A stretch of DNA of 64,000 bases from Escherichia coli. Its GTDB lineage: Bacteria; Pseudomonadota; Gammaproteobacteria; Enterobacterales; Enterobacteriaceae. Shown one piece after another: positions 51,171 to 55,237 of this stretch. The stretch is taken from NCBI RefSeq assembly GCF_003334305.1, contig NZ_QOWS01000007.1; one strand, given 5' to 3'. The notes below the pieces were generated by a model. The model worked only from the letters and a program-made list of their open reading frames with translations, had not been told where the DNA came from and made no database searches. Position numbers and translations under genes: made by a program. Every line of letters begins with the position of its first letter. The stretch's first letter is position 1.

Positions 51171-52634
51171 ATGTTCAGGCAGTTGAAAAAAAACCTGGTT
51201 GCAACCCTCATTGCTGCTATGACCATTGGTCAGGTAGCCCCGGCGTTTGCCGACAGCGCAGACACCTTGCCGGATATGGGAACCTCCGCAGGAAGCACGC
51301 TTTCCATTGGTCAGGAAATGCAGATGGGCGACTATTATGTCCGCCAGCTACGCGGCAGCGCGCCGTTAATTAATGACCCGCTGTTAACGCAATATATTAA
51401 TTCGCTGGGGATGCGTCTGGTTTCGCATGCCAATTCGGTTAAGACACCGTTTCATTTTTTTCTGATCAACAACGACGAAATTAACGCCTTTGCTTTCTTT
51501 GGCGGCAACGTGGTGCTGCACTCTGCCCTGTTCCGTTATTCCGATAACGAAAGTCAACTGGCTTCAGTTATGGCGCACGAAATCTCCCACGTCACCCAAC
51601 GTCACCTGGCGCGAGCGATGGAAGATCAACAACGCAGCGCGCCGCTGACCTGGGTCGGCGCGTTAGGTTCTATTTTACTGGCGATGGCCAGTCCGCAGGC
51701 GGGGATGGCGGCGCTGACCGGTACACTGGCGGGAACACGTCAGGGGATGATCAGTTTCACCCAGCAAAATGAACAGGAAGCGGACCGCATTGGTATTCAG
51801 GTGCTGCAACGCTCGGGATTCGATCCGCAGGCGATGCCAACCTTCCTCGAAAAATTACTCGATCAGGCGCGTTACTCCTCGCGCCCGCCGGAAATTTTAT
51901 TGACTCACCCGTTGCCGGAAAGTCGTCTGGCAGATGCCCGCAACCGTGCTAATCAGATGCGACCGATGGTGGTGCAGTCGTCGGAAGATTTCTATCTGGC
52001 GAAAGCGCGCACACTGGGGATGTATAATTCCGGACGTAACCAGCTCACCAGTGATTTGCTGGATGAATGGGCGAAAGGAAACGTTCGTCAGCAACGAGCG
52101 GCGCAATATGGTCGTGCTTTACAGGCGATGGAAGCCAATAAATACGACGAGGCGCGTAAAACGCTGCAACCGTTACTGGCGGCAGAACCTGGCAACGCAT
52201 GGTATCTCGATCTGGCTACCGATATCGATCTTGGGCAAAACAAAGCCAATGAGGCAATCAATCGCCTGAAAAATGCCCGTGATTTGCGCACCAATCCGGT
52301 GTTGCAGCTCAACCTGGCGAACGCTTATCTACAAGGCGGTCAACCACAAGAAGCGGCCAATATTCTCAATCGCTACACTTTTAACAATAAAGATGACAGC
52401 AACGGCTGGGATTTACTGGCACAGGCGGAAGCCGCGCTAAATAACCGCGATCAGGAACTGGCTGCGCGAGCAGAAGGTTATGCGCTCGCCGGGCGACTCG
52501 ATCAGGCCATTTCGCTGTTGAGTAGCGCCAGTTCGCAGGTGAAATTAGGCAGCCTGCAACAAGCGCGTTACGATGCGCGCATCGACCAGTTGCGCCAGCT
52601 GCAGGAACGCTTTAAGCCTTATACCAAGATGTAA
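51171..52634 (+). CDS. bepA: Periplasmic beta-barrel assembly-enhancing protease BepA (M48 peptidase plus TPR)
   Basis: 487-aa ORF with signal peptide and [10 protein letters not shown] zinc motif. Confidence 0.93.
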
Positions 52635-52654
52635 TTCGCATTAAAGGAAGAACA

Positions 52655-53014
52655 ATGACCAAACAGGTAAAAATCTACCATAACCCACGCTGTTCAAAGA
52701 GCCGGGAAACGCTGAACCTGCTGAAAGAAAACGGCGTGGAGCCAGAAGTGGTGCTCTACCTTGAGACACCCGCCGATGCGGCAACGCTGCGCGATTTGCT
52801 GAAAATGCTGGGGATGAATAGCGCCCGTGAATTGATGCGCCAGAAAGAGGATCTTTATAAAGAACTGAACCTGGCTGACAGTTCGCTTAGCGAAGAGGCG
52901 CTGATTCAGGCAATGGTGGATAATCCGAAGCTAATGGAGCGCCCGATTGTGGTCGCGAATGGCAAAGCGCGGATTGGTCGTCCACCGGAGCAGGTACTGG
53001 AAATCGTGGGTTAA
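52655..53014 (+). CDS. yfgD: ArsC-family protein YfgD
   Basis: 119-aa ORF, recognised YfgD. Confidence 0.9.
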   Translation: MTKQVKIYHNPRCSKSRETLNLLKENGVEPEVVLYLETPADAATLRDLLKMLGMNSARELMRQKEDLYKELNLADSSLSEEALIQAMVDNPKLMERPIVVANGKARIGRPPEQVLEIVG

Positions 53015-53044
53015 GATGTGCTCCATCGCTAGTTGAAGCACATT

Positions 53045-53139
53045 GCCGGATGCGACGCTTGCCACGTCTTATCCGGCCTACGAATACTATGGATTAACTT
53101 CGCGTAGTTCGGATAAGGCGTTCGCGCCGCATCCGACAA
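53045..53139. repeat. REP/BIME cluster between yfgD and hda
   Basis: Inverted gccggatgcgacgc...cttatccggcctac and ggataaggcgttcgcgccgcatccg units. Confidence 0.6.
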
Positions 53140-53151
53140 TAAACACCTTAT

Positions 53152-53853
53152 CTACAACTTCAGAATTTCTTTCACAAACGGAATGGTCAGCTTACGTTGC
53201 GCGGTAATCGACGCACGATCCAACTGATCCAACGTCATAAATAGCGTGCGCATTTCTCTGTCGAGCCGCTTCAGCAAGAAACGCCCCACATCTTCCGGCA
53301 GTTCAAAACCACGCAAACGCGCGCGTAACTGTAGCGCCTGCAACTTATCTTCATCAGAAAGTGGCTGCAATTTGTAGATCTGCCCCCAGTCGAGTCGCGA
53401 CGCGAGATCCGGTAACCCCAGATTCAACTGCCGCGGTGGACGATCGCCGGTGATCAACAATCGTGTTTTGCCCGATTCCAGAATTCGATTGTAGAGATCG
53501 AAAATCGCCATCTCCCACAACTCATCGCCTGCAATACACTCAATGTTGTCGATACAGACCAGCGACAAATGCTCCATACCGTCGAGCACTTCCGGAACAA
53601 ACCAGGTGCGTTTATCCAGCGGGACATAGCCCACCGCATCGCCACGCTGCGACAATTCCGCGCAAGCCGCGTGCAGCAGATGGCTGCGCCCCGCGCCTTC
53701 GCGTGCCCAGAGATAGATGTAACCGCTATGTTCCTGACGCAGCACGTTTTGCAGCGCAGCCAGTAAAGAGGAGTTATCCCCCGGCCAGAAACTTGCAAAG
53801 GTTTCGTCGTCAGGAAGATAAAGTGGCAAAGAGAGCTGTGCCGGTGTGTTCAG
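53152..53853 (-). CDS. hda: DnaA-inactivating (RIDA) protein Hda, with non-AUG (CTG) start
   Basis: Track ORF is 248 aa from an upstream ATG; functional Hda is reported to begin at a CTG giving [19 protein letters not shown] (233 aa); AAA+ domain. Confidence 0.8.
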
Positions 53854-53947
53854 AGATACCTCAACCAGGATTTCACAAAATCGCGAGAAGTTTACCACAG
53901 AATCCCATGATGTTTGAACCGGGCAGCAACACTGCCCGGTCGGTACA

Positions 53948-55237
53948 TTATTTGTCTGTTATATCCGCGTCTTCTGCGTCCAGCACCACTTCTTCAGGGC
54001 GCAGCACACTAATCAGTTTGAAGATCAAACTTAAGCCGATACCGACGATGGTCGCCAGCGCCATACCTTTTAACTCCGCCGCGCCGATGTTTACCTTCGC
54101 GCCACTGACGCCGATGATCAAAATCACGGAAGTCAGGATCAGGTTCTGTGCTTTGTTGTAATCCACTTTCGATTCGATCAAAACACGAATACCGGAAGCA
54201 CCGATGACACCATAAAGCAGCAGCGAAACGCCGCCCATCACCGGCAATGGGATCATCTGGATAGCGGCAGCCAGTTTACCGACGCAGGAAAGCAGGATAG
54301 CGAAAATCGCCGCCCCGCCGATAACCCAGGTACTGTAAACACGGGTGATCGCCATCACGCCAATGTTTTCTCCGTAAGTGGTATTTGGCGTGGAGCCAAA
54401 GAAGCCGGAGATCACGGTCGACAGGCCGTTAGCAAACATCGAACGGTGCAGACCTGGATCGCGCAGCAGATCTTTTTTGACGATATTAGCCGTTACTACC
54501 AGGTGCCCTACGTGTTCGGCAATAACCACTAATGCCGCTGGCAGAATAGTCAGAATGGCAAACCACTCGAAGCGCGGCGTATAGAGGGTTGGCAGCGCAA
54601 ACCAGTGAGCATTAATAATCGGCGTGGTATCGACAATTCCCATTGCGAAAGAGAGCGCGTACCCCACCAGCACGCCAATTAAAATCGGGATAATTGCCAG
54701 GAAACCACGGAACAGCACGGAACCTAAAACCGTGACCGCCAGGGTGGTAATAGAGATGATGATGGTTTTGGAGTCTGGCGTTTGCCCTTCAGCCGGGAGT
54801 AAACCCGCCATACCGGCAGCTACGCCCGCCAGCTCCAGACCGATGACGGCAACGATTGCGCCCATTGCCGCAGGTGGAAACAGCACGTCCAGCCAGCCGG
54901 TCCCCGCTTTCTTCACGATAAAAGAAACCAGGCAGAACAGCACGCCGCACATAATAAAGCCGCCCAGCGCGACTTCATACCCCAACGGCAACAGTAACAA
55001 TACCGGTGAAATAAAGGCAAAGCTGGAACCAAGATAAGCCGGAATTTTCCCTTTACAGATGAAGAGATACAGCAGCGTTCCAATACCGTTAAATAACAGT
55101 ACAGTCGCCGGGTTAATATGAAATAAGACGGGCACCAGGACGGTTGCACCAAACATGGCGAACAAATGTTGCAAACTAAGCGGGATTGTCTGTAAAAGTG
55201 GCGGTCTTTCACTCACCCCGATAGCACGGCGCGTCAT
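53948..55237 (-). CDS. uraA: Uracil:proton symporter UraA
   Basis: Track ORF is 443 aa; start chosen at [16 protein letters not shown] (429 aa). Confidence 0.92.

Follow-up and report, generated by a model that had tools for sequence, protein, structure and literature searches.

Translation of Escherichia coli hda very probably starts at a CUG codon that is invariant across Enterobacterales, and the apparent upstream start coincides with a promoter element

The gene for the DnaA inactivator of Escherichia coli, hda, resembles a small number of genes in which a rare and weak initiation codon follows a well-placed Shine-Dalgarno sequence. The AUU codon of infC serves as the sensing element by which IF3 autoregulates its own synthesis; the codon of hda is CUG instead, and we know of no infC-type autoregulatory loop for this gene. 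The same combination is found in pcnB (AUU) and yfjD (CTG, per EcoGene 3.0), and the products of infC, pcnB, and yfjD, like that of hda, are wanted at a low or tightly set level. The CTG start of hda is established knowledge, already published and annotated. For the use of this codon in vivo, the summary in EcoGene 3.0 (PMC3531124) points to the report of Su'etsugu et al. 2008, and the statement of the first-pass annotation that a CTG start has been reported for K-12 agrees with that summary.

The K-12 protein, which is identical to the Hda described here, acts with the DNA-loaded clamp to stimulate the hydrolysis of DnaA-bound ATP (RIDA) (PMC5397184, PMC5742627). The paper on the Hda-clamp structure places the clamp-binding motif QLSLPL at residues 6-11 of a 233-residue protein (PMC5397184). 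Hda is present at approximately 50 monomers per cell, its chromosomal level is undetectable by a polyclonal antibody, and raised amounts of the protein delay initiation and trigger SOS (PMC5397184). In reporters, CUG supported 1-2% of the expression obtained with AUG, whereas GUG and UUG supported 10-100% (bioRxiv 10.1101/063800).

We analysed a 64,000-nt stretch of E. coli DNA (assembly GCF_003334305.1, contig NZ_QOWS01000007.1), referred to as the window, to which all coordinates below refer unless stated otherwise. The K-12 gene (b2496; HDA_ECOLI) lies in the order upp-uraA-hda-arsC/yfgD-bepA in the RefSeq records, and the window has the same order. The RefSeq hda CDS of 702 nt maps exactly onto window positions 53853..53152, both for MG1655 (b2496, NP_416991.2) and for two PGAP-annotated records, which carry WP_001307333.1. 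The start, stop, and length of the CDS are equal in K-12 and the window, the 126 bases compared over the promoter, leader, and start are those of MG1655, and nothing of substance differs between the two loci. The 951 bases around hda showed 95-100% identity to all 5426 complete E. coli genomes (100% to strain H15 and 99.6% to the K-12 AB1157 record), and the features beneath this match were 'hda: DnaA inactivator Hda' and 'uraA'.

At the protein level, the window Hda was compared with two curated NCBIfam equivalog models and exceeded both Hda cut-offs. The score against NF005982 was 476.6 bits (cut-off 268), with profile positions 1-235 falling on residues 14-248 of the long ORF described below, and the score against TIGR03420 was 281.4 bits (cut-off 194.8), with a match that begins at residue 21 of the long ORF, the Q of QLSLPL. 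Residues 1-233 of the window Hda are 100% identical to the E. coli Hda chain 5X06_E, in which a 20-residue tag is followed by MNTPAQ..., and the arginine finger of AAA+ Box VII, Arg153, is invariant in a 20-sequence alignment. The window gene is E. coli hda, the DnaA inactivator. The features of its upstream region are summarized in Table 1.

Table 1. Coordinates of features at the start of hda in the window.
Feature	Position	Strand	Remarks
upp-uraA hairpin terminator	53918..53940	minus	fold -22.2 kcal/mol, z = -4.6
Possible weak -35 TTCAAA, 18-nt spacer	53913..53918	minus	4/6 matches; overlaps uraA terminator tail
Apparent N-terminal extension, 15 codons, 45 nt	53854..53898	minus	promoter and leader
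GTG opening the 248-codon ORF	53896..53898	minus	overlaps the TG of the extended -10, 16 nt upstream of the TSS
Extended -10 element TGgTAAACT	53889..53897	minus	TG 53897-53896, hexamer TAAACT 53894-53889
TSS of the hda-only transcript	53882	minus	MG1655 NC_000913.3 2618805, reverse strand
5' untranslated leader of the hda-only mRNA, 29 nt	53854..53882	minus	published TSS to CTG
Shine-Dalgarno GAGGU	53858..53862	minus	GAGG core ends 5 nt before CTG
CTG (CUG) initiation codon	53851..53853	minus	sequence, 84/84 loci, literature
hda CDS as in RefSeq	53853..53152	minus	233 codons and stop, CTG-started
Codons of the clamp-binding motif QLSLPL	53821..53838	minus	residues 6-11 of the 233-aa protein, by translation

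The ORF list and a codon-by-codon reading both gave a minus-strand ORF of 248 codons (53898..53152). Codon 16 of this ORF is the CTG at 53853-53851, which is followed by AAC ACA CCG GCA CAG CTC TCT TTG CCA CTT, and the nearest in-frame stop upstream of the CTG is the TAA at 53961. The first-pass annotation had described a 15-residue extension from an upstream ATG at 53898. The extension does comprise exactly 15 codons (53898-53854) and is an over-extension, but the codon that opens it (53898-53896) is GTG. The sole ATG in the vicinity (53908-53906) lies in another frame, where a stop follows after 5 codons. The GAGGU preceding the CTG forms a duplex of -6.9 kcal/mol with the 3' end of 16S rRNA, which is the strongest match within 53960-53820.

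We compared hda and its flanks in 80 genomes that each represent one species of Enterobacteriaceae, Erwiniaceae, Yersiniaceae, or Hafniaceae, together with three added loci from Photorhabdus, Dickeya, and a metagenomic sequence with an Hda resembling that group. The codon aligned to 53853 was CTG in 84/84 Enterobacterales loci, with no change to TTG, GTG, or ATG, and the coding DNA of the 81 aligned sequences was 74-94% identical to the window. These 81 sequences contain 141 columns with an invariant residue when Met and Trp are excluded, and the CTG is the only one of these columns that is written with a single codon; the remaining 25 invariant Leu columns use 2-6 codons each. These results (1/141 columns; 81/81 sequences) indicate that the conservation of the start codon is far from chance. 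All five bases of GAGGT were also invariant in the 81 sequences, and the spacer between GAGG and CTG was 5 nt in 73 of them and 6-7 nt in 8. In 36/81 loci, the stretch that separates the CTG from the nearest in-frame stop contains no ATG, GTG, or TTG. Moreover, several Serratia and Yersinia loci have a stop (the TGA within TTGAGGT) 4 codons upstream of the CTG, and therefore the CTG alone can open a reading frame that encodes the clamp-binding motif there. Within E. coli, positions 53909-53850 were identical in 5363/5427 records, which is too little variation to be informative.

The next canonical in-frame start codon is TTG 53829, and translation from it, with the CTG as a mere leucine codon, would leave the sole nucleotide invariance of CTG 53853 unexplained. 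The codon at this position is itself TTG in 29/81 sequences and CTG in 52/81. It has no Shine-Dalgarno sequence: the segment scored 3 nt upstream of the TTG gave -1.7 kcal/mol, and every 9-mer between the hda GAGGU and 53820 scored above -4 kcal/mol. The TTG lies within QLSLPL, and its product would lose the clamp-binding motif that defines Hda function (PMC5397184); such a start is contradicted by structural and biochemical work on the 233-aa protein. We rejected TTG 53829, the use of which would cut the clamp motif and is hardly credible.

When translation starts at CTG 53853, the clamp motif begins at residue 6 of E. coli Hda, and in the long form it begins at residue 21. In the wider Hda family, 99 full-length proteins were compared, each standing for a 50%-identity cluster and most of them 40-55% identical to E. 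coli Hda; the median position at which the motif begins is residue 5, with 10th and 90th percentiles of 3 and 12. Genes often have an in-frame NTG ahead of their true start, and an extension alone means nothing.

Two further observations concern the distribution of hda starts. In nine distant Hda homologues (45-64% identical), the called start was GTG or TTG in five and ATG in four, and an in-frame stop was found at most 10 codons upstream in 6/9, including all five GTG/TTG cases. The share of non-ATG starts in these nine exceeds the approximately 18% that is usual for bacterial genes; as these are gene-caller starts in a small sample (5/9), a family habit of weak starts is suggestive only. 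The second observation concerns strain SCPM-O-B-8794 (L004, labelled Escherichia coli), in which the hda leader contains an extra C (AAATCCCTGG vs AAATCCTGG). This one-base insertion brings a stop into the frame of the long ORF. The Hda protein of L004 is 99% identical to the window Hda. The DNA identity of the hda CDS to the window does not exceed 94% in any of the 80 loci, and for this reason L004 may belong to a cryptic Escherichia lineage.

The region of the apparent extension has the features of a promoter. Positions T53897, G53896, T53894, A53893, and T53889 were invariant in the 81 sequences, A53891 and C53890 were conserved in at least 98%, and 53892 was variable, as was the base after the TG. 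The pattern TGnTAnRnT occurs in all loci compared (84/84), and the distance from its hexamer to the CTG ranged over 33-41 nt, with remainders modulo 3 that were split 44/24/16 among the loci. Because the distance varies over all three remainders, the stretch between the GTG and the CTG behaves as non-coding. The first 13 residues of the 248-aa translation lie outside both curated Hda profiles, which start at residues 14 and 21.

The transcript start was taken from the SMRT-Cappable-seq data of Yan et al. 2018 (PMC6131387), whose Supplementary Data 2 gives 2618805, reverse strand, as the TSS of an operon consisting of b2496. The offset between the window and MG1655 is 2564923, which puts the CUG at MG1655 2618776 and the GUG at 2618821, and the two sequences are identical over the TSS stretch. 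G53882 is invariant in the 81 sequences and lies 7 nt past the -10 hexamer; a TSS at this base was predicted from the conservation profile before the published TSS was looked up, and the two matched. Since the TSS is located downstream of the GTG, the own mRNA of hda does not contain this codon. The Cappable-seq 2016 supplements held no entry for the hda upstream region.

An NTG was present at the position of the GTG in 84/84 loci (GTG in 75, ATG in 8, and TTG in 1), because the promoter fixes the TG, and it was in frame and open in 7/84 loci only. The 248-codon ORF is an accident that arises from the TG motif of the promoter falling in frame in E. coli.

Extended -10 promoters tolerate a poor -35 element. 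In comparison with the sigma-70 extended -10 class (TGnTATAAT, poor -35), the putative hda promoter shares the TG, T-12, A-11, and T-7, which such elements require and which are the invariant positions here, and a TSS 7 nt downstream. The predicted promoter differs from TGnTATAAT in its hexamer TAAACT, which has 4/6 matches, and its possible weak -35 is common with the tail of the uraA terminator. The assignment of TTCAAA as a putative -35 was read from the sequence; T53918 and T53917 are 99% conserved. A consensus promoter scan called no promoter in 53700-54400, because the scan needs 9/12 matches and the predicted hda promoter has 8.

The stop codon of uraA (53950-53948) is followed by a strong hairpin, and the reported 3' end of upp-uraA at 2618838 corresponds to window position 53915 (PMC6131387). 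The terminator hairpin (53915-53940, minus strand) has no U-run. Reads that extend past this terminator accounted for 95/260 in M9 and 8/214 in rich medium (PMC6131387 Supplementary Data 1), and an operon b2498-b2497-b2496, which is a read-through upp-uraA-hda transcript, is recorded (PMC6131387). Because read-through differs strongly between the media, the fraction of hda mRNA originating at the upp promoter may depend on the growth condition.

The read-through mRNA carries GTG 53898 and could therefore yield a minor 248-residue isoform, with the GTG as a genuine second start used beside the CUG. In such transcripts, which are frequent in M9 (95/260 reads, PMC6131387), the GTG is in frame with the CTG with no stop between them, and GUG is the stronger codon in the reporters cited above (10-100% of AUG vs 1-2% for CUG; bioRxiv 10.1101/063800). 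The only Shine-Dalgarno-like sequence upstream of the GTG is a weak GGGA, 4 nt before it (-4.0 kcal/mol). However, the hda-only transcript lacks the GTG, its frame is kept in just the 7 loci mentioned above, and the insertion in L004 adds a stop. The 13 N-terminal residues extend beyond both curated profiles, and in the isoform the clamp motif would begin as late as residue 21, in contrast to 98/99 family representatives. The literature, as far as it is summarised in EcoGene 3.0 (PMC3531124), reports the CTG start. We consider a second start at GTG 53898 improbable.

In regards to the leader of the hda-only mRNA, no unusual secondary structure that might gate the CUG was found in its 29 nt (-10 kcal/mol, z = +0.66). 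The leader contains a conserved UUUU-NUG at 53874-53880 on the minus strand (UUUUGUG in the window). N is G, A, U, or C among genera, and the U-run and the UG are kept while N varies freely.

The NUG of this element could in principle open an upstream ORF. In the window, GUG 53876 begins an ORF of 8 codons (GTG AAA TCC TGG TTG AGG TAT CTC TGA), the UGA of which (53852-53850) overlaps the CUG as CTGA, so that ribosomes terminating there might re-initiate at the CUG. Relatives commonly have an NTG at the same position, but the base that opens this NTG varies, and the frame of the NTG relative to the CTG shifts between genera: the ATG found here in Citrobacter and Salmonella is in frame with hda, and Enterobacter reads ATG TAA. 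Furthermore, just 6 nt separate the GUG from the 5' end of the mRNA, the GUG has no Shine-Dalgarno sequence, and no experimental hint of such an ORF was found in the sources searched. Coupling to this upstream ORF is very improbable, and we rejected it on the grounds that neither its frame nor its codon is conserved.

The first-pass annotation had expected automated annotation to over-extend hda. The exact 248-aa form was found on at least 1000 public contigs, some with NCBI and UniRef names, e.g. C3T057_ECOLX, and it is the representative of a cluster with 3510 members derived from Logan and ENA gene calls. The expectation therefore holds for these contigs, but the two PGAP records use the 233-aa form, and the exact 233-aa form, named HDA_ECOLI, is equally common. 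A wrong Hda N-terminus places 15 extra residues before the clamp-binding motif, which matters for cloning or modelling.

Other start assignments occur in related genera. Erwinia, Pantoea, Yersinia, Hafnia, Dickeya, and Photorhabdus read GAG GTG nTT CTG AAC, and in Erwinia, Yersinia, Hafnia, and Dickeya the publicly annotated Hda has 235 aa and starts at the GTG two codons before the CTG. This GTG is the 3' end of the Shine-Dalgarno sequence (GAGGTG) and has no spacing to it. The conserved CTG is the likelier start, so that the 235-aa annotations probably include 2 residues too many. In Salmonella arizonae and Citrobacter, a single base inserted into the leader places an ATG (TTTTATGAAATCC) in frame, 8 codons before the CTG. 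This in-frame ATG gives the 241-aa form of Salmonella annotations; only approximately 6 nt would separate it from the predicted transcript start, it lacks a Shine-Dalgarno sequence, and the CTG and GAGGT are intact. The 235-aa and 241-aa versions of these related genera thus probably start too early. In addition, two complete E. coli chromosomes (NZ_CP102488.1 and NZ_CP029057.1) have hda at position 1, one beginning at the CTG and the other at the GTG; presumably, a start-fixing tool mistook the DnaA homologue Hda for dnaA.

On the other side of the gene, REP-type palindromic repeats (GCCGGATGCGGCG... and CGCCTTATCCG...) were observed at 53010-53144, in the interval that separates arsC/yfgD from the end of hda. 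Their scores against the REP-derived Rfam family naRNA4 were 31.2 and 28.5 bits, below the gathering score of 59.5. A search for known RNA families within 52600-54200 gave only these sub-threshold REP-like matches downstream of hda.

We searched literature sources for an initiation-site profiling signal or an N-terminal peptide of Hda and found none in them. The main text and supplements of TRAINSPOTTER do not mention Hda, the main text of the Ribo-RET preprint contains no direct evidence on the Hda initiation site, and the Salmonella riboproteogenomics supplements and the AUGUG/GUGUG paper yielded neither initiation-site nor N-terminal evidence for Hda. Hda is probably too scarce for detection in those datasets.

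The claim of the first-pass annotation that Hda begins at CTG 53853 is upheld by the RefSeq CDS, the 5X06 construct, the conservation, and the transcript start, all of which agree. We are highly confident that hda initiates at CUG 53853 from its own promoter and that the 248-codon ORF is an accident. Our analysis adds the order-wide invariance of the CTG, the relatives that have no canonical start, and the identification of the false start with the extended -10 element of the promoter, outside the hda transcript. This added evidence strengthens the known picture of Hda without changing it.

In the mechanism that we propose, RNA polymerase would start the hda mRNA at G53882 from the extended -10 element TGgTAAACT just past the uraA terminator. 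The GAGGU at 53862-53858 would then position the 30S subunit, and the initiator tRNA would pair with CUG 53853. The product would be the 233-residue Hda, with QLSLPL at residues 6-11, and the poor CUG start would likely keep Hda very scarce. Such a start suits a protein that is required only in small and bounded quantities.

The strict invariance of the CTG over 84 loci points to selection against stronger hda starts and suggests that the weak CUG was selected to limit Hda, although part of this invariance could come from constraints other than the expression level. By analogy with the AUU of infC, the CUG might be a conserved limiter of Hda dosage across Enterobacterales through which Hda synthesis follows IF3 activity. 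Because IF3 discriminates against such start codons, Hda synthesis would track its activity. This IF3-linked reading starts from the invariance of the codon (84/84 loci), which shows none of the one-base substitutions to TTG, GTG, or ATG that would make it stronger, and we regard the reading as rather doubtful. If it is true, the capacity to switch off DnaA would be tied to the state of the translation machinery.

These results make hda, whose product does harm when too abundant, a clean textbook case of a weak start codon that is fixed throughout a bacterial order, and they show how the TG motif of a promoter can pass for a start codon.
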